A DNA stretch of 64,000 nt from Candidatus Magasanikiibacteriota bacterium (GCA_041666745.1 JBAYGI010000001.1:155095-219094); one strand, 5' to 3'. Shown: positions 498 to 54,207, counted from the first letter of the stretch. The notes: a model not told the origin generated them from the sequence alone. Translations and numbers: made by a program.

Positions 498-726
498 AAA
501 AAACTACTTAATCTGCGTGGAAGTAAATACGTGTCATTCCCGTGAAAACGGGAATCTAACATATCTTTACTCCCACGCAGGTTCTAAGCGTAGGGGGGTT
601 GCACCTTTTTGGTGTAGGCCTTCCCGCGTTAGGGAAAAACGTGCAAAGCGTCAGAGTTAACAACTTCGTTCCATCAGAAGGTAACCAATCTTTTCTGCAT
701 GGGACAACGTCCTTTAAGGAGGACCA
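498..726 (+). promoter_or_regulatory. Conserved structured 5' leader, copy 1 (about 85% identical to 13478-13715)
   Basis: A long hairpin CTGCGTGGAAGTAAA...TTTACTCCCACGCAG encloses the REP hairpin. Further conserved blocks are GGGGGGTTGCACC and GGTGTAGGCCTTCCC, the GGAC/GTCC/GGAC alternative pairing around the SD, and an overlapping uORF (MGQ...). Confidence 0.55.
533..563 (+). repeat. REP-like hairpin repeat (TGTCATTCCCGTGAAAACGGGAATC)
   Basis: The ATTCCCG/CGGGAAT stem is present. The same unit recurs at 2627, 9154, 13518, 14446, 14486, 14773 and 28592. Confidence 0.7.
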
Positions 727-1473
727 ATGAACTGCCCATCCTGTAACGTCCTGCTCGCAGTCCCAATGCCGAATTCGTGTCCCTCGTGTGGGCACCTTCT
801 TCTGACGGTCCCGGTCGCCATGGCGGCACCGCGATTGGTCGGAAGCTTTTCGGTACAGCAGCCCGCCACCCCCGCCCCCGTCACCACGACGCCGCCGGCC
901 GCTCCGACCACGGTGGTCACGACGCAATCCGCCCCCGCGACCATTCAGGTTGCGTCCGTATTGCTTTGGATCGCCGGCATTCTGGCCGCTGTCGTGTTGA
1001 TCGCGATTCTGATCCTGACGTGGGTCAACGTGAAAACAACGGCGACGACTGATGAGTTGGCCCGCGCCACCAAACTCATCAACGATAACTCCGATGAGAA
1101 CGGCGAAGTGGTCGTCAAGGCCACTCGCGGCGCAATCGGCACCTCCGAAACGAATGTCAAGCAGGCCATCACAGCCAGCGAGACGAACGTCAAGAAGGCA
1201 ATCACCGATGACGGCAATGCGACGCGCACCGCGATCACCACTTCCGAAACGAATGTCAAGCAGGCCATCACAGCCAGCGAGACGAACGTCAAGAAGGCAA
1301 TCACCGATGACGGCAATGCGACGCGCACCGATGTCAAGGAAGCTCGTAAGGCCCTCCGTTGGGCCATAGCGTCACGGGCATCGAAGTCTGATATCTCGAC
1401 GCTGGAAACGAACATGAGGGCGTCCATCAAGGACAGCAAGCTCACGGTGCGGATCGAAGATCAGCGCAAGTAA
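727..1473 (+). CDS. GC-rich bitopic membrane protein: N-terminal CxxC...CxxC zinc ribbon, Pro/Thr-rich linker, one TM helix, two 33-aa tandem repeats
   Basis: 248-aa ORF with an AAGGAGG SD 7 nt upstream. GC is about 65% with high GC3. The TM helix is IQVASVLLWIAGILAAVVLIAILILTW. The repeat unit is TSETNVKQAITASETNVKKAITDDGNATRT, present twice. Confidence 0.65.
   Translation: MNCPSCNVLLAVPMPNSCPSCGHLLLTVPVAMAAPRLVGSFSVQQPATPAPVTTTPPAAPTTVVTTQSAPATIQVASVLLWIAGILAAVVLIAILILTWVNVKTTATTDELARATKLINDNSDENGEVVVKATRGAIGTSETNVKQAITASETNVKKAITDDGNATRTAITTSETNVKQAITASETNVKKAITDDGNATRTDVKEARKALRWAIASRASKSDISTLETNMRASIKDSKLTVRIEDQRK
1141..1338 (+). repeat. Tandem direct repeat of 99 nt (two 33-codon units) inside the CDS
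   Basis: The 99-nt unit beginning TCCGAAACGAATGTCAAGCAGGCC... recurs 99 nt downstream and is almost identical. Confidence 0.8.
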
Positions 1474-1600
1474 GTAGTTTTTCAACCATCTGCCCTCGCT
1501 AGTCGGGCGTTGTATTTAGTTCACAAGGAGAACTAAACGCACAAAGTACTAGCAAACGCTGGGTGAGGGTAATGAGAATTTTCTCCTAAAGGCAAATCCT

Positions 1601-1620
1601 CCCCACATCCACTTGAATAC
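1601..1620 (+). repeat. Cassette boundary box B (CCCCAcATCcaCTTGAATAC), copy 1
   Basis: Related motifs lie downstream of each island-1 ORF: 1601-1620, 2557-2585 (CCCCATTGTCCATCATCTTGAATAA) and 4523-4542 (CCCCACCATCTTGAATTCAT). Confidence 0.55.
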
Positions 1621-1657
1621 ATTATTGAAACATAGTGTGGTCAAGCGGATGAAAAAT

Positions 1658-1672
1658 GTTCTTTAAAATTTA
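1658..1672 (+). repeat. Cassette boundary box A, copy 2
   Basis: GTTCTTTAAAATTTA, 67 nt upstream of the 1740 start codon. Confidence 0.6.
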
Positions 1673-1739
1673 GGTTAGGAAAGTGGCGAATTGCGTCACG
1701 TGAGATTTCAATTCTTCAACGGTCACAAGGAGACCAATC

Positions 1740-2438
1740 ATGAAGAAGACAATCAAGTTGGTCGCGAGCTTTTTCGCGATGATGGTCGCATTGGCGGTCA
1801 TCGGTGCTTCGTCGGCTTCGGCAGACGAAGTTCAGGCAAATGTCGGCGATGAGGTCGAAGTCAAGGACGGCGACACGATCGTGGTCAAACTGCCAAAGAG
1901 CCAGACCCACGTCAGGCTTGGTGGCAAAACCAAGGTCGTGACACCGACATCAGCCCTCGACGACGAGTTCGCACAGCAGGCCAAGGCGGTCACCGAGCCC
2001 GAGGACGCCACGTCCTCGGTTGAGTTCGCAATGTTCGCGTCGAAAGATCCTAATATGGCCGTGGTTGGATCCAAGCTGGGTTTCGCGACGAAAGTCGGGA
2101 CTCCATTGGTTCGTGCCTACGCCGGCGCAACCTTCGGAAAGGCTCTCACGGATCTCAGCGGTTCGAATCAGAATCTTTGGGTCTTCGGCTTCAACGCCGG
2201 CGTCTCGAAGCTCATGACGAAAACTGTCGAGCTCGGAATCTTTGGCACGGCCACCTGGTCGTACCGAGATGTAGTTCGTGAGGCCTCCGCATCGTTCATC
2301 GGTGCGGGTCCGGCACTCCGTGTCAACAAGTGGGGCGTGTTCGTTGAGGCAGGAATTCCGATCGGCTATTGCAACAAGTTTTCCAGAGGTTGGGAGACAG
2401 GTTCGGCCCTTCAAGCCGCCTTCGGTTTCCGCTTCTAG
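1740..2438 (+). CDS. GC-rich secreted protein with a signal peptide and a C-terminal ...AAFGFRF beta-barrel OMP-like signature
   Basis: 232 aa. Signal peptide MKKTIKLVASFFAMMVALAVIGASSASA|DE. Alternating hydrophobic residues end in a terminal Phe. SD AAGGAGA. High GC. Confidence 0.6.
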   Translation: MKKTIKLVASFFAMMVALAVIGASSASADEVQANVGDEVEVKDGDTIVVKLPKSQTHVRLGGKTKVVTPTSALDDEFAQQAKAVTEPEDATSSVEFAMFASKDPNMAVVGSKLGFATKVGTPLVRAYAGATFGKALTDLSGSNQNLWVFGFNAGVSKLMTKTVELGIFGTATWSYRDVVREASASFIGAGPALRVNKWGVFVEAGIPIGYCNKFSRGWETGSALQAAFGFRF

Positions 2439-2556
2439 TAGCCCCACATCCTCAGTTAGCAGAACTGTAAAACTGCCGGTTGTTCGTCGTCGCAGATTTT
2501 CGCGATTGGCGAACCGAGATCTTGGGCTCGGCCGTGCGTTTCTCGCATGGCCAGCT

Positions 2557-2585
2557 CTCCCCATTGTCCATCATCTTGAATAAAT
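2557..2585 (+). repeat. Cassette boundary box B, copy 2
   Basis: CTCCCCATTGTCCATCATCTTGAATAAAT. Confidence 0.5.
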
Positions 2586-2626
2586 ATGGTGTACAGTGTC
2601 AGAGAGTAAAGTTTCTGATAAATAAT

Positions 2627-2652
2627 TGTCATTCCCGTGAAAGCGGGAATCC
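2627..2652 (+). repeat. REP-like hairpin repeat
   Basis: TGTCATTCCCGTGAAAGCGGGAATCC inserted into the inter-cassette spacer. The homologous spacer at 1621-1657 lacks it. Confidence 0.7.
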
Positions 2653-2656
2653 AACA

Positions 2657-2671
2657 GTTCTTTACAATTTA
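2657..2671 (+). repeat. Cassette boundary box A, copy 3
   Basis: GTTCTTTACAATTTA. Confidence 0.6.
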
Positions 2672-2859
2672 AAACAACGATAGGAAGAAAATTTCCCACC
2701 GCGAAGAGAGTGTGTGTATCTAATACATAATTTCTCTCCGCGGGGGCGAAATTTTCTCCCCAAGGTAATCCGCTTGCTTCTCAGCGAGGAGAAGTGGGTT
2801 GCGGGGGAAAATCCCGCGAGAGTGTCTTTCTGCCAACCAAGACCTATGGAGGGTCATCA

Positions 2860-4319
2860 TGCAGAGCAAGAACATCAAGTTGGTCGCGAGCTGCATCGCG
2901 ATGCTGGTCACGTTGGTGATCAGCGGCTGTAATGGGTTCGAAAACCCCAACTCCACGGACGTCGCCAACAGTGGCACGGACGTGGCGGCGGCGGACGCGG
3001 GTAACACCGCGGACGCCGGACAGAAGGCTGAGATCGCGTCGGTCGACGCCGGCAACGCCGGCACCGACACCTCCGTGCAGGAAGTGCAGCAGGTCGAGAT
3101 CGCGCAGCAGGAAGTCACGACGGACGCCGGCCCAAAGCCGGAGTGCGTCACCAAGACCGATTGCGACGACAACAACCTGTGCACGGTGGATTTCTGTGAG
3201 CAGGGCAAGTGCAGTCATGCGGACGCCTCGGGCGACTGCGACGACGGCAATGCCTGTACGCTCAAGGACACGTGCTCGGCCGGCGCCTGCAAGGGCACGC
3301 CGGTCGACTGCAACGACAACAATCCCTGCACGGACGATTTCTGCCTCGGTGGCGTGTGTTATCAGGGCGTCAACAATGCGCCCTGCAACGACAACGACGC
3401 CTGCACGCAGGAGATGTGCTCGGGCGGCACGTGCCAGATTGGCACGGTGACCGACTGCAACGACAACAACCCATGCACGATCGACACGTGTGATAAGACC
3501 AAGGGTTGTACCAATACACCAGTCGTCTGCGAAGATGGCGATCTGTGCACTATGGATTGGTGCGATTTCGAAACTGGTGCCTGTCTTTTCGTCAACAAGG
3601 TTTGTGACGACGGCAAAGCATGGACAGAAGATTTTTGTGACAGCTTCGGCTGGTACGGAGTCCCTGGCCAGTGTGTCGCAGAAAACAAGCCAAATGGCTG
3701 TTCTAAGGACACGGACTGCAAATGGGACGGCAACCTTTGCACGTTCGTGACCTGCAACGGTATCACAGGCACATGCGGGGCAATCGACAAGAACTGCAAC
3801 GACAATTTGCCCTGCACAGTCGATTCCTGCGCCCCGTCGAAGGGGTGTGTCAGCACGCCGGTGAACTGCGACGATAACAACACCTTGACGACAGACAGTT
3901 GCAATGCTCAGGGCGCCTGCGTCCACACGCCGGTTGGCACCACGCCGACCCCGACGCCGACCACGTTCGTCCAGCTCGGGTTCGTCGCTCCTGTGGCGGC
4001 GGAAATCCACGTCTTTCACGGCGTGGATCCGTCCGATCCGGCCAAGAACGTCGAATCGATCGGGCTGGCTCCCTACGTCATCAACCTTAACCAGTACGAG
4101 GCTTGTGGTACGGCCGATGGTATCGACATCGCCGTGCGCAATCCGACCACGATGGTTTGGTGGTGCGGAGTGGGAGATGGCACGCCGAGCAAGGCACAGC
4201 TCAGTGTCTCGGTCAACGGAAAGTTGGTGACCCCAACGTTCCAGATCGAAATCGGAGCTTGCAGCAACGGACCGGAGGGCAATCTCCACCTGAGCAAATT
4301 GCAGCTCGGCTGTCCCTAG
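2860..4319 (+). CDS. GC-rich lipoprotein with about 12 Cys-rich CxDxNxCTxDxC repeats (Myxococcus-type cysteine-rich repeat)
   Basis: Start chosen at MQSKNIKLVASCIAMLVTLVISGC (lipobox ISGC) with GGAGGG 6 nt upstream. The longer ORF from 2799 has no SD. Repeats are of the form CNDNNPCTDDFC and CDDGNACTLKDTC. High GC. Confidence 0.65.
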
Positions 4320-4522
4320 TTCTTTCGCAGTATCGGCGCCTATCGTTGACCGGTTTTAAACTTTACCGGTTCTAAACAAAAAGTGAAGGTTATTCGCACC
4401 TTAAATAAAAGCGGACGTTGGAGTGTTTTGATGGAAAACCACTCTTGCGATAGGCCATTTTGGCCAACCGTATTTGTCAGCGATAACTCGTTGGCGGATC
4501 GGAACCTCGGGGCATGCAAATG

Positions 4523-4542
4523 CCCCACCATCTTGAATTCAT
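4523..4542 (+). repeat. Cassette boundary box B, copy 3
   Basis: CCCCACCATCTTGAATTCAT, preceded by the perfect hairpin GGGGCAT-GCAA-ATGCCCC at 4509-4526. Confidence 0.5.
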
Positions 4543-4598
4543 AATCTCGATTGTGACTTGAAGATGGAAATAGCAATATCTCCATTACAAAAAACAAT

Positions 4599-4626
4599 CA
4601 CCCTTCTCTCGGGTGGTTTTTTGTTT
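4599..4626 (+). terminator. Hairpin plus U-run terminator closing island 1
   Basis: CACCC-TTCTCTC-GGGTG followed by GTTTTTTGTTTTT. Confidence 0.5.
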
Positions 4627-5221: not shown

Positions 5222-5839
5222 ATGCAGTTTCAGCCATTTTATCAAAAAATAAGAGAAATTAAACCGTTGTTTTCCAAAAAGGATGCCGAGCTGTTGTTTC
5301 CTACCGGAGATATCTCCTCACAACAGCTTTCTCGTTGGTGCAAGCAGGGGTATCTTTTGAAAATTAAAAATGGGCTTTATCTTTTATCCGGATACGAAAA
5401 CCAAGTTCCAAATTTTTTTATTGCTAATGCGATCTACTATCCGTCGTATGTTAGTTTGGAAACTGCTTTGTATGAGTATGGTTTTATTCCGGATGTTCCA
5501 CACACTATCACTTCGGTCACAACCAAAAAAACTAGTTTTGTAAAAATAAATTTAGGGCAATTTTCTTATCGAAAAATTAAAACCGATTGTTTTATTGGCT
5601 ATGAGCCAAAACGATACTTGAAATTCGATGTTTTATTTGCCAGTCCAGAAAAAGCTTTGGTGGATTTTTTCTATTTAAACAAACAACGTTTACAAAAATC
5701 CGAACAGATTACGGAACTGCGCCTAAATTATTTTAGTTTAAAAGAAAAAATAGACAAAGAAAAGTTGCGTCATTATGGATCTTTGTATAAAAGCCCATTG
5801 CTAGATCGTTTGTTAAAAGAGCTGATTAATCAATTTTAA
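5222..5839 (+). CDS. AbiEi-family antitoxin/transcriptional regulator (type IV TA)
   Basis: N-terminal LSRWCKQGYLLKIKNGLYLL matches the AbiEi wHTH signature (xSRxxKxGxLxRIxRGxY). It sits immediately upstream of the AbiEii-like gene. Confidence 0.65.
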   Translation: MQFQPFYQKIREIKPLFSKKDAELLFPTGDISSQQLSRWCKQGYLLKIKNGLYLLSGYENQVPNFFIANAIYYPSYVSLETALYEYGFIPDVPHTITSVTTKKTSFVKINLGQFSYRKIKTDCFIGYEPKRYLKFDVLFASPEKALVDFFYLNKQRLQKSEQITELRLNYFSLKEKIDKEKLRHYGSLYKSPLLDRLLKELINQF

Positions 5840-5841
5840 TT

Positions 5842-6618
5842 ATGGAGGACTTACCATTAATTTTAAAATTTGCCAAAGAACGTGGTCTGCCTTTGAATAA
5901 TCCCAAGAGTTTGTATGTGGAATATTTGCAATATGAAGTATTGAATTCTATTTTTAGACATACGGATAAATTGAGTTTTATTGGCGGTACGGCTTTGCGA
6001 ATTTTATTTAATTCACAAAGATTTTCTGAGGATTTGGACTTTGATAATTTCGGTATTACAGAAAAAGAATTTGAAAAATTGACACGTGATATTTCCAAAG
6101 ATTTGTTTGCCTTGGGTTTTCAGGTAGAATTTAGGAATGTTTATAAAGGGGCATATCATTGTTATTTTAAGTTTGCTGAAATTTTGCAAAAATATGGTTT
6201 TTCACCGCATGCTGATGAAAAAATATTGGTGAGAATTGATACAGTCAAACAGGATTTTGATTTTTCACCGGTTGTTGGCGTTTTGAATAATTTCGGATTA
6301 TTTTTCGAAGTAAGACATAATCCAAAAGATATTTTGTATAGTCAAAAATTATTGGCCGCTTTGGAACGGAAGCGTGGAAAGGGGAGAGACTTTTATGATA
6401 TTACTTTTTTGGATGGTTTGACCAAGCCCAATCTGGACTATTTGAATTACAAAGTTGGTATCAAAACTATGGGTGAATTAAAAGAACGTTTGTTGGCACG
6501 ATGTAGCGAAGTGGATTTCAAAGAGATGGCGCGCGATGTCGAACCGTTTTTGTTCAACCACGACGATATTGTTCGTATTACCAAGTTTCCACAGTATATC
6601 GAGGGGTGGCAGGTGTAA
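5842..6618 (+). CDS. AbiEii/AbiGii-family nucleotidyltransferase toxin (DUF1814)
   Basis: FIGGTALRILFNSQRFSEDLDFD is the typical nucleotidyltransferase motif of AbiEii. It lies 2 nt after the AbiEi stop. Confidence 0.65.
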   Translation: MEDLPLILKFAKERGLPLNNPKSLYVEYLQYEVLNSIFRHTDKLSFIGGTALRILFNSQRFSEDLDFDNFGITEKEFEKLTRDISKDLFALGFQVEFRNVYKGAYHCYFKFAEILQKYGFSPHADEKILVRIDTVKQDFDFSPVVGVLNNFGLFFEVRHNPKDILYSQKLLAALERKRGKGRDFYDITFLDGLTKPNLDYLNYKVGIKTMGELKERLLARCSEVDFKEMARDVEPFLFNHDDIVRITKFPQYIEGWQV

Positions 6619-8090: not shown

Positions 8091-9176
8091 ATGAAACACA
8101 TTGTTCAAATTATTCCGGCGCTGGGATATGGAGGAGCCGAGCGATTGGTGGTGGATTTGATAAATAATAGCGATAGCGCAAAATACCGTTTTTCGGTGAT
8201 TGTTTTTTTTGATAATATTCCATTGAAAACTTTGATCGAAAAAAAGGCGGAGGTAATTTTGGTAGAAAAAAATTCCAAATTGGATTTTAATTTTTTAAAT
8301 AGATTGGAAAAACAATTGACCGAATTGAAGCCGGACTTGGTGCACGGTCATTTGTTTGCCGGAGATTTTTGGGGGCGATTGGCGGCTCATCGAATTGGCG
8401 TGCCGTATTTGAGCACCGAACACAACTTGAATCACGACGACGGTTGTCTGAAAAATTTTATTAAAAAAATAGTGTCTAATAAAAAAGATTATTATGTGGC
8501 TTGTTCGGAGGCGGTGGCCGGTTATATGAGGAGGGTTTACAATATTAAAAATGAGATTACCGTGATTCGCAATGGTATTGATTTGAATCGTTTTGCCAGT
8601 TTGGCGCCGTCCGCTTGGCAGATACCTTTAAATTTTTTAATGGTTGGGCGTTTGGTCAAACAAAAAGGACATTTGGTTGCTTTGTCGGCATTAAATAATT
8701 TGAAAAACTATCCTTGGAAATTGAGAATAGTAGGGTCGGGAAAAGAAAAAAAGAATTTACAAAAATTCGTAATGAAAAATGATTTATCCACTCGGGTGAC
8801 ATTTGTTGATCCGTTGGTAAAAGTAGAAAAGTATTTTGGCAAGTCGGATGTGTTGTTGATGCCGTCTGTCTGGGAGGGGTTGGGCGTGGTAGTGATGGAG
8901 GCGATGGCTAGTGGGCGAGTGGTGTTGTGTTCCAAAACCGGTGGTTTGGTTGAGATAATAAAAAACAACGAAACAGGATATTTGGCTCAGCCAAAAAATA
9001 TTGCCGATTGGGAAGAAAAAATAAAATATATTTTTGAAAATAAAGATGAATGTCAACGAGTGACAAAGAACGCGCAAAAATATGCCAAAGAAAATTTTGG
9101 GATTGAAAAAATGGTGGAAAAGTATGGTGAGATTTATTCTCTTGTAATTAATAGATTCCCGCTTTCGCGGGAATGA
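8091..9176 (+). CDS. Glycosyltransferase family 4 (GT-B)
   Basis: C-terminal EX7E-type motif LMPSVWEGLGVVVMEAMASG. The last 7 codons and the stop are supplied by a REP element (RFPLSRE*). Confidence 0.7.
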   Translation: MKHIVQIIPALGYGGAERLVVDLINNSDSAKYRFSVIVFFDNIPLKTLIEKKAEVILVEKNSKLDFNFLNRLEKQLTELKPDLVHGHLFAGDFWGRLAAHRIGVPYLSTEHNLNHDDGCLKNFIKKIVSNKKDYYVACSEAVAGYMRRVYNIKNEITVIRNGIDLNRFASLAPSAWQIPLNFLMVGRLVKQKGHLVALSALNNLKNYPWKLRIVGSGKEKKNLQKFVMKNDLSTRVTFVDPLVKVEKYFGKSDVLLMPSVWEGLGVVVMEAMASGRVVLCSKTGGLVEIIKNNETGYLAQPKNIADWEEKIKYIFENKDECQRVTKNAQKYAKENFGIEKMVEKYGEIYSLVINRFPLSRE

Positions 9177-13345: not shown

Positions 13346-13389
13346 GTTGAGCCAAAAAGACAGTCAGTTGATAAACGACGAAATACCCC

Positions 13390-13418
13390 TTGACAAAGGG
13401 GCGTTTTTGTGCTATTAT
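13390..13418 (+). promoter_or_regulatory. sigma70-like promoter (TTGACA-17-TATTAT)
   Basis: TTGACA at 13390-13395 and TATTAT at 13413-13418, at the head of GC-rich cassette 4. Confidence 0.6.
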
Positions 13419-13456
13419 ATACAGTTATTATTTGTCATAATAATAGCTCAGATTAG

Positions 13457-13470: not shown

Positions 13471-13477
13471 AACAAAA

Positions 13478-13715
13478 ACTACTCAACCTACGTGGAAGTA
13501 AGCACATGTCATCCGACTGTCATTCCCGTGAAAACGGGAATCTAACATATCCTTACTCCCACGCAGGTTCCAGGCGTCGGGGGGTTGCACCTTGTTGGTG
13601 TATGCCTTCCCTACGCTAGGGAAAAACGTGTACAGCGTTCAGTGTTTTAACCCCTTCGTTCCATCAGTGGTAGCCAATCCATCTGTATGGGACAACTGTC
13701 CATTAGGAGGACAAC
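13478..13715 (+). promoter_or_regulatory. Conserved structured 5' leader, copy 2
   Basis: Aligns with 498-726 at about 85% identity. A compensatory pair change occurs in the outer stem (GTAAA/TTTAC versus GTAAG/CTTAC). The GGAC-GTCC-GGAC switch is conserved. A uORF ends in ATGA overlapping the main start. Confidence 0.55.
13507..13548 (+). repeat. REP-like hairpin repeat (with a partial duplicate TGTCATCCGAC)
   Basis: TGTCATCCGAC followed by TGTCATTCCCGTGAAAACGGGAATCTAACAT. Confidence 0.7.
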
Positions 13716-14255
13716 ATGACCATGCCCGTTAACCAAGCTCAGAGCGGTTCGACTCAGCGTCTCAATCTCGGTGCCGCCAATGCCAAGCCCGACAATTCGT
13801 CGCTGGGAGTCTGGATCATGATCGGTGTTGGCATAGCGATCTTCGGCCTCATCCTCGCGATCATCGGCATCGTCAAGGCCAGTTCGGCCGACGATCACGC
13901 CGACGTGGTTGGTCAGGCAGTCGTTTCGCTCAGCGCAGAACACGCCAAGCTGGCGACAAAGGTCGACACCAATCAGGCGGCGACCGTCACCCAGTTGGCC
14001 GCGAAGGTTTCGAAGGCTGAATTCGACGCGGCGATCGCGAAGCTCGACGCCAAGGCCGAACAGAGCGTCGTCGACAAGTTGAAGACTGAACTTGGCGACA
14101 AAGCCAGCAACCGCAGTGTCACTGACCTGCGAAATCTGCTTGGTGACAAGGCCGACACGAAGGCTCTTCGGAGTCTGGCGCGCAAGCTGAAGCGGCTTGA
14201 TGCACGTGTCGAAGGTCTCGCTCTCCCAGAGCAGGCCACCAACACCGAGCAGTAG
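13716..14255 (+). CDS. GC-rich bitopic membrane protein with an extracytoplasmic Ala/Lys-rich coiled-coil region
   Basis: 179 aa. TM helix VWIMIGVGIAIFGLILAIIGIV. SD AGGAGG. High GC. Same architecture as the 727-1473 protein but unrelated in sequence. Confidence 0.6.
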   Translation: MTMPVNQAQSGSTQRLNLGAANAKPDNSSLGVWIMIGVGIAIFGLILAIIGIVKASSADDHADVVGQAVVSLSAEHAKLATKVDTNQAATVTQLAAKVSKAEFDAAIAKLDAKAEQSVVDKLKTELGDKASNRSVTDLRNLLGDKADTKALRSLARKLKRLDARVEGLALPEQATNTEQ

Positions 14256-14410
14256 TCCATTCCGACGCAATGTCGGACATCGTAGTAGTCACCTTGATTT
14301 TGAAGGTGACAGCTCGATGAGGACGCAAACCCCGAAAGGGTGTGCGGGAACGAAAGTTCCCGCACATACCGCTTAGTAAATAAACATTTGTTTATTGAGC
14401 AGACTAAAAA

Positions 14411-14437
14411 ATCCACTTATGATAGTGGATTTTTTAT
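14411..14437 (+). terminator. Rho-independent terminator
   Basis: ATCCACT-TATGAT-AGTGGAT followed by TTTTTTATTT. It is preceded by three further hairpins between 14280 and 14370. Confidence 0.65.
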
Positions 14438-14445
14438 TTCTCATT

Positions 14446-14514: not shown

Positions 14515-15468
14515 TTATTCCCCAGTGATTAGACAAACTATCGGTCCGGTGAATTTCCAATTTTGTTTTGTTGCTTGTTGGAGTCCAACAATCGACAGGG
14601 CGCTGTTGGATGAAAGTTTTATTTTTTCGGTTTTATATACTAGTTTTATTATATCTTTTATCTGTGTGTCATCGGCAACCCAACCAAACCCTCGACTGCT
14701 TTTTATATCCGCCACCACCATTTCTTTGCGGTGAGCGACATTGTCCACAATCGCGCCGGCTAGTGATATCTTTGTCATTCCCGCGAAAGCGGGAATCTGA
14801 GAATTGTTGATAGATCCCCGCATTCGCGAGGATGACAAACATGAGGATGACAGGGACAACGCATCCGTTATCGGATGGCAAGCGGTAGTTTGGACAATAT
14901 GAATTTGTGGTGTTAGTTTTAACTTTTTAAAACCATTGTATAGCCCTTGAGCGGTAGTGCCACTGCTGGTTGGAATAAACACAGCAGATAGATTTTTTAT
15001 TTTACTTAATTCTAGGGCGAGTTGTTCATAACCAAGTAAAGCTAGGTCGTCGGTTGACTGGCGCAATATTTTTGCCTGCCCTGATTTGTCCATTTGAAAA
15101 GCCGACTGTTTTGGATTTTTGGTTTGGGTGATGGTGATGTTTTTCGACATTACCTTTTTTAATAATCCGAGTTTGTTTTTGTCTATTTTTTCACCCACAA
15201 AAATCTGTAAAGACAATTTGTTTTTATGTTTTTGATTGTATTTTTTGATATACAAACCGGTAGCCAACGCGGCATTTCCCGAAGAAGATATCACAAAATT
15301 GACCTGTCCTTGTTTGACATAGGTATCGATCATAATTGGCAGAGAACGCCCTTTGTGCGAACCCAGCGGATGCAAGTCTTCTCTCTTGAAATAGAGTGGC
15401 ACCGCCAAGCCGAGCGTTTTGGCCAATTTTTGAGGTTTTGTTTGGGGGGTAATCATAGGTCTTGCCAA
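14515..15468 (-). CDS. PLP-dependent enzyme, fold type II (threonine synthase/cysteine synthase-like), carrying an in-frame REP-derived insert of about 27 aa
   Basis: GSHKGRS PLP-lysine motif near the N-terminus. The insert ...LSSSRMRGSINNSQIPAFAGMTKIS... is encoded by the REP units at 14773-14855. Confidence 0.55.
   Translation of the reverse strand: MARPMITPQTKPQKLAKTLGLAVPLYFKREDLHPLGSHKGRSLPIMIDTYVKQGQVNFVISSSGNAALATGLYIKKYNQKHKNKLSLQIFVGEKIDKNKLGLLKKVMSKNITITQTKNPKQSAFQMDKSGQAKILRQSTDDLALLGYEQLALELSKIKNLSAVFIPTSSGTTAQGLYNGFKKLKLTPQIHIVQTTACHPITDALSLSSSCLSSSRMRGSINNSQIPAFAGMTKISLAGAIVDNVAHRKEMVVADIKSSRGFGWVADDTQIKDIIKLVYKTEKIKLSSNSALSIVGLQQATKQNWKFTGPIVCLITGE
14773..14855. repeat. Two REP-like units inside the PLP enzyme gene, in-frame
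   Basis: TGTCATTCCCGCGAAAGCGGGAATC at 14773-14797 and ATCCCCGCATTCGCGAGGATGACA at 14814-14837, plus a partial GAGGATGACA. Confidence 0.7.
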
Positions 15469-29177: not shown

Positions 29178-29206
29178 ATTTTAGCAAAAAAATTAACAAT
29201 TGACAA
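29178..29206 (-). promoter_or_regulatory. sigma70-like promoter for the ATPase (TTGTCA-17-TAAAAT on the minus strand)
   Basis: Reverse complement of 29201-29206 is TTGTCA and of 29178-29183 is TAAAAT. It lies about 25 nt upstream of the ATG. Confidence 0.5.
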
Positions 29207-29219
29207 CCCGCCATTGTTT

Positions 29220-29660
29220 TGTTAGTGTGATTTTTGTAAGCGCATGTGCGCTTCAGAGAGATCAATGGTTACTCAATCCTTCAAAGAGAGAGTTGCTGCC
29301 AGGTCTGTTGTTACCGGGTTGGTGATGGTGGCCATGGCTCTGACATGCGAGGCGTCGAGTTATTTACTCAACGGAACTATACCTGAACACCCCATTTTGC
29401 AGGGGGTGATCACGGTCGTCGTCGTTTTCGTTGTCACTTTCGCATTCAAGGTGCGGCGTCTCTACAGAGAGGATGCGGAAATGTATTTCACCTTACATGG
29501 TGAACACCCGCCCATTCGTCTCTGAGTCGGTGAGCTTCACTTTATACCCCGTCTTCCAATCTATGGCGGGGAAGAGCTGTTTCCTCAATCGCTCCACCGA
29601 AAGGTGTTGGTCAGTTCTTTATTGCTCCGGTTTAAGAGTTTTTGGACTCCCGGAGTAGAA
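29220..29660 (+). other. GC-elevated (about 50%) intergenic islet: candidate structured ncRNA or small two-TM membrane protein gene (29265-29525)
   Basis: Compositional contrast with the flanks. The ORF reads MVTQSFKERVAARSVVTGLVMVAMAL...VITVVVVFVVTFAF.... A long bidirectional terminator hairpin closes it. Confidence 0.3.
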
Positions 29661-29664
29661 TAGA

Positions 29665-29727
29665 AAAATCACCTGTGATCACTTAAGTCCAAAATTATTT
29701 TTGGTTTTAAGTGGCAGGTGATTTTTT
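29665..29727. terminator. Long imperfect hairpin plus U-run (bidirectional terminator)
   Basis: AAAAATCACCTGTGATCACTTAAGTCCAAAA, loop, TTTTGGTTTTAAGTGGCAGGTGATTTTTT. Confidence 0.6.
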
Positions 29728-29735
29728 GTTTGTTT

Positions 29736-44425: not shown

Positions 44426-44627
44426 AGCGTTTTAGATCACTCGCATAATCTGAAAACATATTTTAAAATATTTTCAAATTGCGAGGCGAGTGGTCATAAT
44501 ATATCCATACTGCCTCAGTCCCACCCGCCCGCTTATGCGAGTGGGACATTGCTCGAGGCCTTGTCATGGTGCGCGTGGCGTGGATGGCGCTGGTGTTGTG
44601 CCGTCGCACTCGGTAGTCGCGATCAAT

Positions 44628-44825
44628 CTACTTTATTGCCTCAACAAAGTAGAGAAGAACAACAGTGATGACAGCCCCAGCAATTGCGAGAACTACACTG
44701 GTTACCGAGTAGTAGCACGAAGGAATCTTGTCACTGGACTGAGATGGCCTCATGCCACGTAGACCGGTTGTGAAGATAGCTACGAGCAATACCGTATAGA
44801 ATATCCCAATGCCGTAAATGAGCAT
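44628..44825 (-). CDS. Small two-TM membrane protein (65 aa) in a GC-elevated islet
   Basis: AAGGAG SD 7 nt upstream. Helices IFYTVLLVAIFTTGL and VVLAIAGAVITVVLLYF. Upstream on the minus strand is the promoter TTACAA-16-TATAAT at 44922-44949. Confidence 0.55.
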   Translation of the reverse strand: MLIYGIGIFYTVLLVAIFTTGLRGMRPSQSSDKIPSCYYSVTSVVLAIAGAVITVVLLYFVEAIK

Positions 44826-44984
44826 TACAGTTTCTCCTTTGAGTTGTTGTCAGTCCGACGTTGCGCTTGGCACACAAGAGGTGCCACAGACAGCAGTTAT
44901 GCCTTAACGCGCGCCGTTTAGATAATTATACATATTGAGCGTTGACTTGTAAATGTGTGATAGATAAAAATTAAATAAATATAT

Positions 44985-48493: not shown

Positions 48494-51421
48494 ATGGCCA
48501 TAATAAATTTTTTACGAAAGGCGAATGCATTCGCGCTTGTTTTTATGATTGTCATCGCAGTATTTTGTACTTTAGTTTTTGTTAAAATAACAAATGCTCA
48601 AGTAAAAGAGTGGAGCTTCGCTAATTGTACTGATACTGATGGTGGAACTGATTATTTTTTAAAAGGTGATTTTGCTTATGACACACTCCACAATGGGAAA
48701 GTCAATGGTCATGCTGGTGGAGTTGAAAAATGTGTTGGAAATGTGGTAGAAGAAAATATTTGTACGGATGATTCGCCAAAAATTACGAAATATACATGTC
48801 CAAATGGTTGCAAAGATGGCGCTTGTATTGCAGAAACAAAGCCTTTATGTACCGACTCCGACAATGGAAGGGATTATTTTGTAAAAGGGGAGTCAACGGA
48901 TTTTGGCGATACCAGAAAAGATGTTTGTTTTGATTCAAATACTGTTACGGAATTTTTTTGTGAGCAAGCGGCCGGTCAAACACGGCCATCTCGAGGAGCG
49001 GAACAGAAAAATTGTGAATACGGATGTGATGATGGAGCTTGTTTAACAGAGCCGATGGAAAAACCGGAAGAATTGCAGGATGTAAAAACATTTACGGTTT
49101 ATGCCGGTGTTGAAGTATATTATAAAAATTCAGAATTTGAAGTAAATGGAGCGGCGAGCGACCCAAAAACGAGCTTATCTGATTTGTTGGATATGCGTTG
49201 GTCTAAAATTTCCGGTCCAGCGGGTGGCAAGGTGTTGTTTAGCCAGGCAAAGTGTACGCCTTCCAATTGGATGGGGTTTTGCAAGACCACTATTTCTGCA
49301 ACTAAGGACGGAGTATATAAAATTCGACTGAAAGCTATAAATATTAAAAAAACCAGCTCTTATGATGACATCGCTTTGGTGTGGGATACAAAAGGTCCGG
49401 TGTTAAAGGAAGTCAAAAGAATTCCGGTTATTGGAAATGATCCAAATCCGACAGTTACAATTAATGTGTCAGCTATAAATTCCGTCAAACAAGTTTACAA
49501 CCGTTTCGGATATATTATCTATGGCGGCGCGTGCGCTGGCCATGATACTTCGGTCAAACAAGGAAATAATGCGATTGAGTTGTTAAAATTGGCTGATGGA
49601 ACATACGACGATTGTACTATTCAGGTGCAGGATATGGCTGGCAATTTGAGTAATGTTTTAAAAATTTCCAAATTCACCATTGACACTCAATCGCCGACTC
49701 CGCCGGAGATAAGTCAACCGGAAGATGATATTACCGACTCATCGTACATAATATCCGGCACGAAAGAAGCAGGAGCATCTGTGTGGTTGGGAAAAAAGCA
49801 GATAGTGAAACATGATGCAGGCACAAATTGGAAGTATAAAGTTAAATTGAATAGTGGGGAAAATAATTTTGGCATATTTACAGAAGATGAGGCGGGTAAT
49901 GATAGTCAAAAAGTTGTCTTAAATGTTGAAAAACAAAAACCGGTTTGTAACGCGTGGGCGTATGGCGCGTGGGGAAAGTGTGACGATAACCAGCAAATGC
50001 GTAAAATATTTTCTGCTTCTCCAAAAAATTGCGTTGGCGGAAAACCGGATGTGGCCAAAGATTGTAAAGCAGAAAAAAATAAACCATTGTGCGAGTCGTA
50101 TAATTATTCAACATGGAGCAAGTGTGTAAATAATAAACAGGTCAGGACTATTGAATCAACATTGCCGGATAATTGCCGTGGCGGGGAGTCGCCTGTTTTG
50201 AGTCAAATATGCGGTAAAGATGTTTGCGAGTCCGTAAATTACACGACATGGAGCAGCTGTGATAAAAATACTGGCAAGAAAACACGCAAAATTGAATCTA
50301 CTTCGCCAGCGGTTTGTGTTGTTGAAAAACCTGTATTGAGCACAGATTGCAACGGTTGTGAATCATTTAATTATTCCGTTTGGAGTTCCTGCGTAAATAA
50401 TAAACAGACCAGAACAGTTGAATCCACATTGCCTACGGATTGCAGTGGTGGTGTTCAGCCGGTGTTAAGTCAGACATGTGGTAAATCATCATGCGATTTT
50501 GTTTATTACACCACTTGGAGCGCTTGCGACAAAACTACAGGCAAACGAACGCGTCAAGTTGAATCAACGTCGCCAAAACTTTGTGTTCCGGAAAATCCGG
50601 AGTTGTCAAAAGATTGCAATGCTTGCGAATCATATAATTATTCTATGTGGAGCGCGTGCGTAAACAACACACAGACCAGAAATGTGGAATCAACTTTCCC
50701 ATCTGATTGCAGTGGTGGTGTTCAGCCGATAAAAAGTCGTGAATGTGGTAAGACCGCTTGCGATTTTACATATTACACAACATGGAGCGCCTGTGACAAA
50801 ACCACCGGCCAAAGAACACGAAAAGTAGAGTCAACTGTACCTGCGGTTTGTGTTGTGGATAAGCCATGGCTGACCAAAGATTGTAACGCTTGTGAATCAT
50901 ATAATTATTCTACGTGGAGTGCTTGCGTGAATAACACACAAAGCCGAACGATTGAATCCACTTTTCCATCGGATTGTAGCGGTGGAGCGCAACCACTATT
51001 GAGCCGAGAGTGTGGCAAGGAATTTTGTGACTATGTCTATTACACCACTTGGAGCAAATGCGATAAAAATACTGGCAAAAGAACACGTACAGTAGAATCT
51101 ACTTCACCGGCGGTTTGTGTTCCTGAAAATCCGTGGTTGTCAAAAGATTGTGATCTTTGTGAGTCATATAATTATTCGGCATGGAGCGCTTGTGATGGGA
51201 GCGGTGTTCAACACCATACAGTAGAATCAACATTTCCTGAAGATTGCTACGGTGGAGCCCAGCCGTCACTCACGCGCAATTGCGTAGCTTGCGATTCGTG
51301 GATTTATGGCACATGGGGCGCTTGCGCGAACGGTCAGCAGACCAGAACTGTAATGCCCGGCACAGCACTCCCTCTTAATTGTTGGGGTGGTTCGCCGTTG
51401 CTTTCGCAATCGTGCTTTTGA
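48494..51421 (+). CDS. Giant secreted protein (975 aa) with about 14 alternating Cys-containing tandem repeats of about 47 aa (thrombospondin-type-1-like WSxC...R pattern)
   Basis: Signal anchor at the N-terminus. Repeat type X is CESYNYSTWSACVNNTQTRTVESTFPSDCSGG..P.LS..CGK. Repeat type Y is CDF.YYTTWSACDKTTG.RTR.VESTSP..CV.E.P.LSKDCN. Confidence 0.6.
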   Translation: MAIINFLRKANAFALVFMIVIAVFCTLVFVKITNAQVKEWSFANCTDTDGGTDYFLKGDFAYDTLHNGKVNGHAGGVEKCVGNVVEENICTDDSPKITKYTCPNGCKDGACIAETKPLCTDSDNGRDYFVKGESTDFGDTRKDVCFDSNTVTEFFCEQAAGQTRPSRGAEQKNCEYGCDDGACLTEPMEKPEELQDVKTFTVYAGVEVYYKNSEFEVNGAASDPKTSLSDLLDMRWSKISGPAGGKVLFSQAKCTPSNWMGFCKTTISATKDGVYKIRLKAINIKKTSSYDDIALVWDTKGPVLKEVKRIPVIGNDPNPTVTINVSAINSVKQVYNRFGYIIYGGACAGHDTSVKQGNNAIELLKLADGTYDDCTIQVQDMAGNLSNVLKISKFTIDTQSPTPPEISQPEDDITDSSYIISGTKEAGASVWLGKKQIVKHDAGTNWKYKVKLNSGENNFGIFTEDEAGNDSQKVVLNVEKQKPVCNAWAYGAWGKCDDNQQMRKIFSASPKNCVGGKPDVAKDCKAEKNKPLCESYNYSTWSKCVNNKQVRTIESTLPDNCRGGESPVLSQICGKDVCESVNYTTWSSCDKNTGKKTRKIESTSPAVCVVEKPVLSTDCNGCESFNYSVWSSCVNNKQTRTVESTLPTDCSGGVQPVLSQTCGKSSCDFVYYTTWSACDKTTGKRTRQVESTSPKLCVPENPELSKDCNACESYNYSMWSACVNNTQTRNVESTFPSDCSGGVQPIKSRECGKTACDFTYYTTWSACDKTTGQRTRKVESTVPAVCVVDKPWLTKDCNACESYNYSTWSACVNNTQSRTIESTFPSDCSGGAQPLLSRECGKEFCDYVYYTTWSKCDKNTGKRTRTVESTSPAVCVPENPWLSKDCDLCESYNYSAWSACDGSGVQHHTVESTFPEDCYGGAQPSLTRNCVACDSWIYGTWGACANGQQTRTVMPGTALPLNCWGGSPLLSQSCF
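49945..51420 (+). repeat. Tandem coding repeats with a period of about 141 nt, two alternating types
   Basis: Seen in the translation. The nucleotide units are divergent but clearly periodic. Confidence 0.6.
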
Positions 51422-51957: not shown

Positions 51958-54207
51958 ATGAAATATAAAAAATCCAAAAATAACAAATTTAAGCATTCTA
52001 AATTTATTATTTTTGGATTTCTTGCAATTTTTGTTAGTGTTTTAATTATTTGGGGAGTTGTCCGGGCGCAAATCGCGCGCGATGCGATTACTTTTGTCAA
52101 GCATTATAGAATTCAGGACTGGTCGGAAGCCAGAGGTGTTTTGCAAACCAAAGATGGCGGTTATATTTTAACCGGTTATGGGAATTCTGACAAACTCAGT
52201 GTCTTGTCGGATATTGACGCTTTTATTACCAAAGTTAACGCGCAAGGCAACCATCAATGGACCAAACTTTTTCAATCATTCAATTCGGTTAGAATTGACA
52301 AAGGTGTCGGCGGATCCGCCAAAAAGGGTGATGAATATGGCCGTGAAATTGTTGAGCTCACAGACGGCGGTTTTTTGATGGCCAGTCAAGGGACAGGATT
52401 TGTTGACAGCAAGTATTTAAAATTAAAAGAAAAATGGGATGATGTTTTTTTAACTAAATTTGACAAACAAGGCAAACATCTTTGGACAAAAATGATTGGC
52501 AATTACTCCACCGATAGTGTTCATAAAGTTTTCGCCACCGAAGACGGCGGATTTTTATTTTCCGGCTATTCTACCGCCACCGGTTATGGCAAAAAAACAG
52601 CGCCAACTTATTTTATTTTGGCTAAATTTGATAAAAACGGAACAAAAGAATGGTCAAAAATGGCGGATATGACTAATGCGGATATTGAACCATTGACCGA
52701 AGGTGGTTTTATCGCCATAGGCAGTGTCAAAACCGCGGGCAGAGAAAGTAGTACGGCGGAAAAATTTGAGGATACATCCATACCGGTAGCTATTAAATTT
52801 GATTCAAATTTTGGAATTGAATGGTCAAAAAGTTTAGAAATTGTGCCGTTGGAAGAATCAATTTATACGATAGATGAGGCCGGACACACTCATATGAAAT
52901 ACAGAACGAAGCGAAGTTCGGCCGGTAAACTTTTCGCTATCAAGCAAACGGCCGATGGCTATATGGCGTTAGGTTTTCTTTCCCCGATTTTATCCGCCGG
53001 TTCCATTTGGTCCACGCCGGCCGGAAAATATTCATTGATGGCTGTCAAAATTAATAATTTCGGCGAACTGCAATGGGCAAAGGCGATAAAATTGGGCTTG
53101 CAATATGGCCAGCAATTTAATAATGATGTGAGCTTGACAAAAATAATCAAGACAACCGACAATGGTTTTGTTTTTAAATTGGATTATCTTCCACCACCGC
53201 GAAGCGACCAAGAAAATAAAACAGAAATGGTTGATGAAAAATTAAAAGAATTAAATGATTTGTGCGAAAGCAAAAATAGAGTACAGGATTGCGAGAATGG
53301 AAAAATAACCAATGATCCGGAAATTCTTTTGGCATGGGAAAATTATATTAAAACCGCCAAAAGTTTTGACACTACTTTAAACAACGGAATTTTGTTGGTG
53401 AAAACAGACGCGGATTTTAATCCGCAGTGGTCAAAAAAGATTAGCTTGGAGGATTATATCTACGGCTATGGAATAGCGCCAACTTCAGACGACGGCTTGA
53501 TTATTTCCGGCAGTTACAATACATCTATTTTAAATTACAGTTGGAGCATGGGGCAGGGTTATTTTCTGGACACTTTGCTGATGAAATTGGATGTCAACGG
53601 TAATGTCGCGAATAACCAAGGAATGATTGCCGATTACACAGATTTGTCCATCAAAGATGTTGGTTCTTTTCTCGCGCTAAAAGATTTTGCGCCGGTAGTG
53701 AAAAATTTAGTTTTAAAAATTGATAAAAAAGTACAGCCGAAGACGCCGGTTTTGAAAACAAAAGTCATGGATATTTACGCCACGGCTGTAAACCAAGTTG
53801 AGCCGGCCGGCTCCGGAAGTTTGCCAAAAGTTTTTCCCGCTCAAATTCCACCGATAACAAAAACATGGGCGGAGATAAACTTCGCGAATATGGCCAATAC
53901 CGTAGATATTAAACCGATTTATAAAACAGCGATTCAAGTCAACCAAGAACTCTCACCCATCCTTAATCAAATATTTTCCGGCGAGGTGAAATTGAAACCG
54001 GATGTTTCCGGCGGTTTGGAATATGTTTTTGGAAGATTGGTAAACGATAGCGACAAAACAGCGGTGCAAAAATATCTGGAAGGAATTGGATACAAAACAT
54101 ATTTAGCCGAAGGCGATCAATTGGTGATGATGAAAGTGGGCAGGACGCTGACGGTCACTTTTTCATTTGCGGATAAGACGCTGGGTGGGTTGTATGTGAC
54201 TTATTAA
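51958..54207 (+). CDS. Secreted repeat protein (749 aa), paralog of the 55976-58318 protein
   Basis: N-terminal TM anchor. Recurring DGG(F/Y)(I/L) beta-strand-like motifs. A shared C-terminal module ends ...LYVTY. Confidence 0.5.
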   Translation: MKYKKSKNNKFKHSKFIIFGFLAIFVSVLIIWGVVRAQIARDAITFVKHYRIQDWSEARGVLQTKDGGYILTGYGNSDKLSVLSDIDAFITKVNAQGNHQWTKLFQSFNSVRIDKGVGGSAKKGDEYGREIVELTDGGFLMASQGTGFVDSKYLKLKEKWDDVFLTKFDKQGKHLWTKMIGNYSTDSVHKVFATEDGGFLFSGYSTATGYGKKTAPTYFILAKFDKNGTKEWSKMADMTNADIEPLTEGGFIAIGSVKTAGRESSTAEKFEDTSIPVAIKFDSNFGIEWSKSLEIVPLEESIYTIDEAGHTHMKYRTKRSSAGKLFAIKQTADGYMALGFLSPILSAGSIWSTPAGKYSLMAVKINNFGELQWAKAIKLGLQYGQQFNNDVSLTKIIKTTDNGFVFKLDYLPPPRSDQENKTEMVDEKLKELNDLCESKNRVQDCENGKITNDPEILLAWENYIKTAKSFDTTLNNGILLVKTDADFNPQWSKKISLEDYIYGYGIAPTSDDGLIISGSYNTSILNYSWSMGQGYFLDTLLMKLDVNGNVANNQGMIADYTDLSIKDVGSFLALKDFAPVVKNLVLKIDKKVQPKTPVLKTKVMDIYATAVNQVEPAGSGSLPKVFPAQIPPITKTWAEINFANMANTVDIKPIYKTAIQVNQELSPILNQIFSGEVKLKPDVSGGLEYVFGRLVNDSDKTAVQKYLEGIGYKTYLAEGDQLVMMKVGRTLTVTFSFADKTLGGLYVTY

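Follow-up and report, generated by a model that had tools for sequence, protein, structure and literature searches.

A predicted structured RNA leader of about 230 nt, present in two copies that are ~85% identical (~498-726, W1 or copy 1; ~13474-13715, W2 or copy 2) in the 64,000-nucleotide stretch of a Candidatus Magasanikiibacteriota genome analysed here (the window), precedes two genes encoding unrelated proteins, each copy ending at the start codon. The copies are homologous, the element is conserved above the level of a neighbouring gene, its helices covary on the strand of the genes that it precedes, and it sits between a promoter and a Shine-Dalgarno (SD) sequence. It is an undescribed RNA family of a known kind, the structured 5′ leader, with a very narrow distribution. 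We put at roughly 50% the probability that it is a clade-restricted, cis-acting 5′ UTR module that acts post-transcriptionally, setting mRNA lifetime and/or the efficiency of initiation; from the features above we infer transcription of the leader, its transcription start site (TSS) and an effect on stability or translation.

Two leader copies in GC-rich islands

The window has ~39% GC and contains two islands of 55-63% GC at ~500-4600 and ~13500-14400. The GC-rich cassettes picked out in a first-pass annotation of the sequence are borne out by GC3 values of 0.70-0.78 in the island ORFs against 0.25-0.48 in every other gene of the window. High GC3 is found in all orthologues of ORF4, and those of sister species are equally rich or richer (overall GC up to 0.69, in L018), which argues that the bias has been maintained over time and does not simply reflect recent transfer; its cause may be GC-biased conversion, repeated acquisition or selection. 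No ribosomal-protein gene was found among the window ORFs scanned. The leaders and island ORFs are:

498-726, + strand: leader copy 1 (type A), with SD GGAGGA at 718-723 and ATG at 727; predicted helices P1 512-527/566-581, P2 582-605/611-636, P3 638-652 and P4 668-681/690-705; a palindromic REP hairpin at 532-561 in the P1 tip; conserved P4 loop GGUAACCAAUC
13474-13715, + strand: leader copy 2 (type A), with SD at 13706-13711 and ATG at 13716; predicted helices P1 13487-13502/13552-13567, P2 13568-13591/13597-13623, P3 13625-13639 and P4 13658-13670/13679-13693; REP at 13518-13547 plus an 11-nt duplication in the P1 tip
727-1473, + strand: ORF1, 248 aa, with an N-terminal CxxC...CxxC, one TM segment and 33-aa tandem repeats; GC3 0.76
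1740-2438: ORF2
2859-4319: ORF3
13716-14255, + strand: ORF4, 179 aa, with one TM segment and a coiled coil; GC3 0.73

W1 and W2 can be aligned from ~478/13458 to the start codons at 727/13716 (83% mean column identity including flanks; nhmmer E = 1e-67 to 1e-72), and the similarity stops at the ATG, the ORF1 and ORF4 proteins being unrelated (BLASTP E = 3.2); the end-to-end likeness ahead of unrelated ORFs that the first-pass annotation had reported is thus confirmed. P2-P4 occur only twice in the window, by nhmmer and by a P2-P4 covariance model, and differences between the copies affect 10% of paired and 37% of unpaired columns. Copy 1 heads a three-gene GC-rich island whose intergenic structures are different and in which the 3′ UTR module found behind ORF4 is missing; the regions upstream of ORF2 and ORF3 gave no alignment to the leader beyond the REP.

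In the proteins of both ORF1 and ORF4, one hydrophobic, TM-like segment precedes repeat or coiled-coil sequence. The ORF4 protein family is tiny, with 6-7 clusters in a search of 5.8 billion proteins and 13 matches at E ≤1e-10 in a family profile search of 1.84 billion representatives, and none of ORF1, ORF2, ORF4 and the second-gene orthologues could be assigned credibly to a Pfam, NCBIfam or PHROGs family. Within ORF1, a 99-nt (33-aa) unit is duplicated in tandem at 1113-1310 with 90% identity (SETNVKQAITASETNVKKAITDDGNATRT). ORF2 has a signal peptide and a C terminus (...AAFGFRF) that resembles an outer-membrane β-signal, which is odd for a CPR bacterium; its AlphaFold model, made without an alignment, was unusable (pLDDT 35). 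ORF3 carries seven Dicty_CTDC cysteine-rich repeats (E = 4.5e-38), and its signal-peptide DNA (2868-2926) matches that of ORF2 (1746-1804) at 81% identity.

Several other loci of the window deserve mention. GC-richer patches (~0.5) lie at 29200-29730 (+) and 44480-44940 (−), where promoter- and terminator-like signals were read by eye and where GC-rich, structured-looking stretches with no Rfam match flank small hydrophobic ORFs (~85-93 aa at 29244-29525; 65 aa at 44628-44825, −); these patches may be smaller-scale units of the same kind as the leader cassettes. A gene pair between the islands (5222-6618) looks like a toxin-antitoxin or abortive-infection module; the L003 orthologue of its second gene carries PF08843 AbiEii, and the first is presumably AbiEi. 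The pair is followed by Wzy_C, GT4, radical SAM, GT4 and FG-GAP genes, in the same order in relatives. Farther along, a 975-aa ORF (48494-51421) contains four tandem 267-nt copies (~70% identical) at 50090-51190, and related periodic repeats of 168-171 nt occur in ORFs at 52400-52830 and 56300-56940; these ORFs probably encode repeat-domain surface proteins.

A covarying fold on the mRNA strand

Folding of both copies, a check that the first-pass annotation had proposed, gave structures far more stable than those of shuffled sequences on the + strand (z = −6.8 for copy 1 and −4.7 for copy 2). W1, W2 and their homologues from three related assemblies (L002, L003 and L006) were then aligned with MAFFT, without fitting to any structure, and RNAalifold was applied on top. 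The consensus comprises 70 pairs in four sense-strand helices, P1-P4, and 94% of its cells are paired, compared with 38-52% when partners are slid. Eleven pairs are doubly changed, against 0-3 with slid partners and with 8 of 500 shuffles reaching 11, and the covariation score of 0.284 was reached by none of 500 shuffles; because the set consists of five sequences from three lineages in which several covarying cells were inherited together, we treat these statistics as suggestive and not of R-scape grade. Covariation, which the same annotation had recommended looking for, therefore stands above both the slid and the shuffled controls. G·U pairs make up 50 of 331 paired cells (15%), and the opposite strand would pair only 79%, which argues that the folded strand is the mRNA strand, while indels of 1 and 2 nt in the alignment rule out a conserved reading frame. 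The alignment thus supports the view that the leader is a structured RNA of the sense strand, conserved and showing compensatory changes.

The predicted helices lie in series, with no multi-helix junction. P1 is a stem of 15 bp that can accommodate, at its tip, an inserted copy of the palindromic repeat dispersed through the genome. An A-U to G-C change in this outer stem, previously cited as compensatory, is real (alignment columns 38/134), and copy 2 has one A·C mismatch in the same stem (column 26/146). P2 is a long three-part hairpin with seven doubly changed pairs, P3 is small and weakly supported, and P4 has 13 bp with three doubly changed pairs (CCAU/AUGG versus UUGU/ACAG) and ends ~12 nt ahead of the strong SD (GGAGGA). 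Some unpaired stretches are invariant across the three lineages of this one clade: J2/3 (UAGGGAAAA) and the P4 loop, GGUARCCAAYC.

Orthologous loci carry the same leader or an unrelated one

Orthologous loci were reached through protein homologues (ORF4 and PALP), as DNA pattern scans were nearly fruitless. The search for more copies that had been suggested at the outset yielded three orthologues, one at the orthologous locus in each of three related Magasanikbacteria assemblies. L002 is a Logan contig with the only close ORF4 homologue; in L003 (GCA_036170335.1) and L006 (a groundwater assembly), the leader follows the FG-GAP gene and precedes a GC-rich ORF encoding TM and coiled-coil segments. 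Between the window and L002, identity is 92% in the leader, 96.5% in the 3′ UTR and 86-89% in the adjacent PALP housekeeping gene, whereas the ORF between the UTRs can be aligned over only one 189-bp stretch (78%) and its protein is 52% identical. The non-coding flanks are therefore more constrained than the neighbouring enzyme gene, and the ORF is diverging very fast.

Exact leader-block patterns had no match in viral contigs, first-generation leader patterns had none in genome or metagenome contigs, and BLASTN of the leader found nothing in phages. A relaxed two-anchor pattern returned only L012 (= L003) and L015 (= L006) plus chance matches in Chitinophaga, Bacteroides and other contigs, which were rejected as unsupported by nhmmer and the covariance model. 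The P2-P4 covariance model, run on the window and on 15 loci, detected no additional copy. By pattern scans, nhmmer and the P2-P4 model, the leader family is very small and does not extend beyond one clade.

In five further assemblies the orthologous ORF is preceded by another structured leader, not homologous to type A, which we term type B:

L018, 8068-8232, − strand: type B leader
L020, 7859-8020, − strand: type B leader
L022, 3860-4005: type B leader
L023, 1325-1491: type B leader
L024, 165-330: type B leader

The predicted type B fold opens with a 22-bp P1 hairpin, UCUGCRYG...CRYGCAGA, followed by a long-range helix, CCCCGUGUGGGG...CCGCACGG, around nested hairpins; 11 of its 44 pairs are doubly changed. 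Only the CUGCRYG/CRYGCAG base of P1 is common to both types, and type B scores 10.9 bits (E ~1) with the P2-P4 model, so the two are not detectably homologous. Sister species thus run the orthologous gene with an unrelated leader, and the type A fold is not indispensable for that gene. The first-pass description of the leader as dedicated to bitopic membrane proteins is accordingly narrowed: type A heads only two gene families, one of which has a type B leader in these five assemblies. In one more distant relative, PALP lies directly beside the FG-GAP gene and the island is absent.

Promoters, terminators and a structured 3′ UTR

Each leader lies between a consensus promoter and the SD and ATG of a bitopic membrane-protein gene. 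The surrounding elements are:

269-297, + strand: σ70 promoter of copy 1, TTGACA, 17-nt spacer, TATACT, TG extension; 11/12 consensus matches
394-415, + strand: terminator-like hairpin and U7 run between this promoter (~100 nt downstream of it) and copy 1
13386-13418, + strand: terminator hairpin of the upstream FG-GAP gene, overlapping the cassette 2 promoter and kept at all orthologous loci
13390-13418, + strand: promoter of cassette 2, TTGACA-17-TATTAT, TG extension
13424-13450, + strand: inverted repeat AGTTATTATT-N6-AATAATAGCT at the predicted transcript 5′ end
14256-14440, + strand: structured 3′ UTR module, hairpins A-D and intrinsic terminator at 14405-14436

At the second locus, the loop of the FG-GAP terminator is the −35 box TTGACA and its U-run is the promoter spacer, and the terminator arms covary among species (CCCCTT/AAGGGG, ACTCTT/AAGAGT, ACCATT/AATGGT). 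The inverted repeat begins ~6 nt past the −10 box, and its arms also covary among orthologues (TTATTAT/ATAATAA versus TTATTCT/AGAATAA); copy 1 has no such repeat. Promoter and inverted repeat are kept across all orthologous loci, with type A and type B leaders alike. With the TSS placed by promoter position, the 5′ UTR of copy 2 would be ~290 nt long, ~230 nt of it leader. The transcript start of copy 1 is uncertain because of the terminator-like hairpin between its promoter and the leader, which could belong to a separate small RNA gene or an attenuator. A putative small RNA at 303-416 pairing with the leader was considered and dropped, its duplex energy being within ~1.3 s.d. of shuffles. 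Strong terminators end the units at 4596-4625 and 14405-14436, and none was found inside either leader.

In all related assemblies, GC-rich ORFs of the PALP locus are without exception followed by the 3′ UTR module, which is ~190 nt long (L002 812-1000; L003 12022-12216 and 10932-11122, both on the − strand; L006, L008, L018, L020, L022 and L024). Its order is hairpin A, CGUAGU, hairpin B, CUCGAUGAGGACGAAAAUCCCCAAAAGGGUG, hairpin C, CCGCUUAGUAAAUAAA, hairpin D and terminator, and among 12 distinct copies double changes occur in 11 of 37 consensus pairs. The module has no Rfam match. A hammerhead core for the stretch CUCGAUGAGGACGAAA was rejected because the core does not fit and lacks Rfam support. 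A unit of the PALP locus thus reads, in order, terminator/promoter overlap, a putative 5′-end hairpin, leader A or B, strong SD, ORF and 3′ UTR, the ORF being GC3-rich and encoding a short N terminus, one TM segment, a coiled coil and often a Pro/Ala-rich tail.

A cis-acting post-transcriptional module is favoured

These features lead us to favour a reading in which a sense-strand transcript would start at a near-consensus σ70 promoter and the leader would form the main body of a long 5′ UTR. The leader would be the exchangeable non-coding module of self-contained units made up of promoter, structured leader, GC3-rich ORF and terminator, to which units of the second locus would add the 5′-terminal hairpin and the structured 3′ UTR. 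Such units would encode fast-evolving, single-pass membrane/coiled-coil envelope proteins in a Candidatus Magasanikbacteria subclade, and a trans-acting factor would probably recognise the sequence-invariant P1 stem or P4 loop. The resemblance to the ompA, slpA and STAB-SD leaders discussed below, namely a fold between a strong promoter and the SD together with predicted stable structures at the 5′ and 3′ ends, favours this cis-acting module. Counting against it, a plain stabiliser has no obvious need for ~230 nt and an invariant loop.

SD occlusion is not a conserved function of the family

An alternative interpretation is a riboswitch-like or protein-titrated SD switch, in which a ligand or protein would decide whether GTCC pairs with the GGAC at the base of P4 or with the GGAC adjacent to the SD and would thereby turn translation on or off. 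The first-pass annotation had described a GGAC/GTCC/GGAC triple with classic mutually exclusive pairing. The triple is present in W1 and W2, and also in L002, and the competition is geometrically possible in all three, the minimum free-energy (MFE) structures pairing GUCC with the GGAC that overlaps the SD and placing the upstream GGAC at the base of P4. RNAalifold also proposes a CUUC:GGAG anti-SD pairing, and the invariant P4 loop and J2/3 could serve as a binding site. GTCC is missing altogether from the L003 and L006 orthologues, however, which restricts the proposed switch to the lineage of the window and L002, and the CUUC:GGAG helix has no double changes and appears in no single-sequence MFE structure. 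By the partition function, the SD is unpaired with a mean probability that varies from 0.20 in W1 through 0.36 in L002, 0.49 in W2 and 0.58 in L006 to 0.63 in L003.

A short upstream ORF (MGQ...) noted at the same place shows a similar pattern. It exists in the window copies (ATG at 699 in copy 1; ATGA overlap with the main start in copy 2), has no nearby stop in L002 and is replaced by a different short frame in L003 and L006; since its frame and length differ or it is absent among homologues, it is not a conserved feature. Taken together, the loss of GTCC, the anti-SD helix lacking double changes, the variable accessibility of the SD and the variation of the upstream ORF argue that SD occlusion is not a conserved function of the family and is at best a lineage-specific add-on. 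No multi-helix junction is predicted among the helices in series, no Rfam riboswitch matches, and the genes downstream encode orphan envelope proteins, not enzymes or transporters. Conserved, mutually exclusive structures of the kind that make up a riboswitch expression platform were not found, there being no terminator, no family-wide GTCC and no double change in the anti-SD helix. The broader proposal of a riboswitch-like or protein-binding cis-regulatory RNA therefore keeps its conserved structured leader and loses its conserved switch. We regard an SD switch as unlikely, and a small-molecule-sensing one as less likely than a role in stability or initiation.

Conserved flanks around a variable gene

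The leader and the 3′ UTR might also persist as recombination flanks of a variable-gene locus, that is, as homology arms whose folds are secondary, which we likewise judge to have a small probability. This would fit flanks that are 92-96% identical around an ORF with little alignable DNA. Paired columns of W2 differ by 27-31% from its own orthologues in L003 and L006, more than the 10% by which they differ from W1, which argues that the leader was copied or converted between loci within the lineage. The occurrence of leader type A or B at the same locus in sister species and the missing island where PALP abuts the FG-GAP gene point the same way, and the high GC3 of all orthologues is what GC-biased conversion would predict. 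Homology arms have no need, however, for compensatory changes, for an asymmetry of G·U pairs between strands or for the preferential conservation of stems. A role as recombination scaffold and the favoured cis-acting module are compatible and not mutually exclusive.

Carried further, these observations could describe a hypervariable envelope-protein system of episymbiotic CPR bacteria that has not been described before, an idea that we offer as speculative. The leader and the 3′ UTR would be fixed RNA scaffolds of strongly expressed, self-contained units whose coding parts are swapped or converted through the flanks; recombination-associated GC-biased conversion or repeated capture of foreign GC-rich genes would hold GC3 at ~0.75 in a genome of 39% GC; and leaders A and B would be distinct post-transcriptional inputs.

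A dispersed palindrome occupies only the tip of P1

The hairpin nested in P1 (ATTCCCGTGAAAACGGGAAT), which the first-pass annotation had labelled REP, was found in both copies and is a dispersed repeat with seven matches in the window at ≤2 mismatches, where none is expected. P1 as a whole is a 70-nt imperfect palindrome that carries the REP. The tip fits exactly the pattern of the Neisseria dRS3 repeat, ATTCCC(N8)GGGAAT (PMC3898611), and is likewise dispersed in the genome, and the sole BLASTN match of the leader in plasmids is this tip, in Neisseria. It is variable, with a different repeat variant in L002 and an expanded insert in L003. The likeness to dRS3 and REP-type palindromes ends there, since the rest of the leader is unrelated and only the P1 tip belongs to that class. 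Two palindromes of the same pattern lie in frame at 14765-14838, inside the PALP gene (14515-15468, −), where they add 19 residues (RGSINNSQIPAFAGMTKI...) to this PLP-dependent enzyme that are missing from a 294-aa orthologue. A further copy (9155-9174) forms the 3′ end of a glycosyltransferase ORF (8091-9176).

It is very unlikely, in our view, that the element is a non-functional relic, left by a segmental duplication or by a MITE- or REP-associated palindrome that landed upstream of two genes. Such an origin would agree with the repeat carried by P1, of the dispersed REP/dRS3 type and present at no fewer than seven window sites including coding sequence, and with a tiny family confined to one clade. 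It accounts poorly for an orthologous position kept in three other assemblies with conservation above that of the adjacent housekeeping gene, for covariation in P2 and P4, which are not REP-like, and for similarity that ends precisely at the start codon. Least probable of all is a stand-alone or processed small RNA, P1-P4 being released from the 5′ UTR to act in trans, since its very stable hairpins, invariant P4 loop and strong promoter are offset by the lack of a terminator or obvious processing signal from P4 to the SD and by the constant position of the element immediately upstream of an ORF.

Relation to known RNA systems

Rfam 15 returned a single tRNA above gathering threshold in the whole window, and matches up to E = 10 were noise far below gathering scores, with none on P2-P4 and no riboswitch among them. 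Literature searches found no earlier description of the leader and no paper on riboswitches or structured RNA in Patescibacteria. To our knowledge, almost nothing is known of regulation by non-coding RNA in Candidate Phyla Radiation bacteria, and the locus described here offers a covariation-backed leader, a second, non-homologous leader and a conserved 3′ UTR module, all on fast-evolving envelope genes. The envelope proteins, anomalous in composition, are plausible candidates for interaction with host or phage in these episymbionts. The more unusual aspect is the context, in which conserved RNA modules flank GC3-rich, hyper-divergent envelope genes of an AT-rich CPR genome; if the transcripts are confirmed, they would provide handles on the control of CPR surface proteins and on the maintenance of GC3 at 0.7-0.8 in such a genome.

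A type I toxin-antitoxin mRNA of the hok kind, whose toxin is shorter than ~60 aa, was rejected because the ORFs encode 179 and 248 aa; it is also opposed by the absence of an antisense promoter facing the leader and of a 3′ module like that of copy 2 behind copy 1. Compared with an integron gene cassette, the shared element here is 5′ to the ORFs and follows the promoter that belongs to each unit, and no integrase was found among the neighbouring genes listed or scanned. Variable surface-protein cassettes offer a closer analogy, with conserved non-coding flanks around a hyper-divergent ORF and a leader apparently copied between two loci, but the flanks here are predicted folded RNAs with covariation, and neither locus had a visible silent cassette, invertase, integrase or DGR reverse transcriptase nearby.

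The leader also recalls SD-sequestering leaders, riboswitch platforms and the ROSE and fourU thermometers, in that three of five homologues have a short upstream GUCC with predicted pairing to part of the SD, and this pairing sits in a leader with conserved upstream helices. It differs from them in that the occluding strand is not family-wide and the predicted occlusion is weak and variable, and in having no predicted aptamer-like junction, no known ligand class and no terminator.

The favoured reading, a cis-acting module that would set mRNA lifetime and/or initiation, finds its nearest parallels among the long structured 5′ UTRs of highly expressed envelope genes, such as E. coli ompA and the slpA genes of Lactobacillus and Thermus, and in the STAB-SD of B. 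thuringiensis cry genes with their 3′ retroregulator, a comparable long structured leader. By analogy, the units described here would share with these a strong promoter, a hairpin at or near the 5′ end, a leader of more than 100 nt with stable hairpins before a strong SD, a stable multi-hairpin 3′ end and an envelope-protein cargo. There is no sequence or Rfam relation to them, however; the present leader appears to be longer, with four helices and an invariant loop, and the genes that it heads have an anomalous GC3 and evolve very fast.
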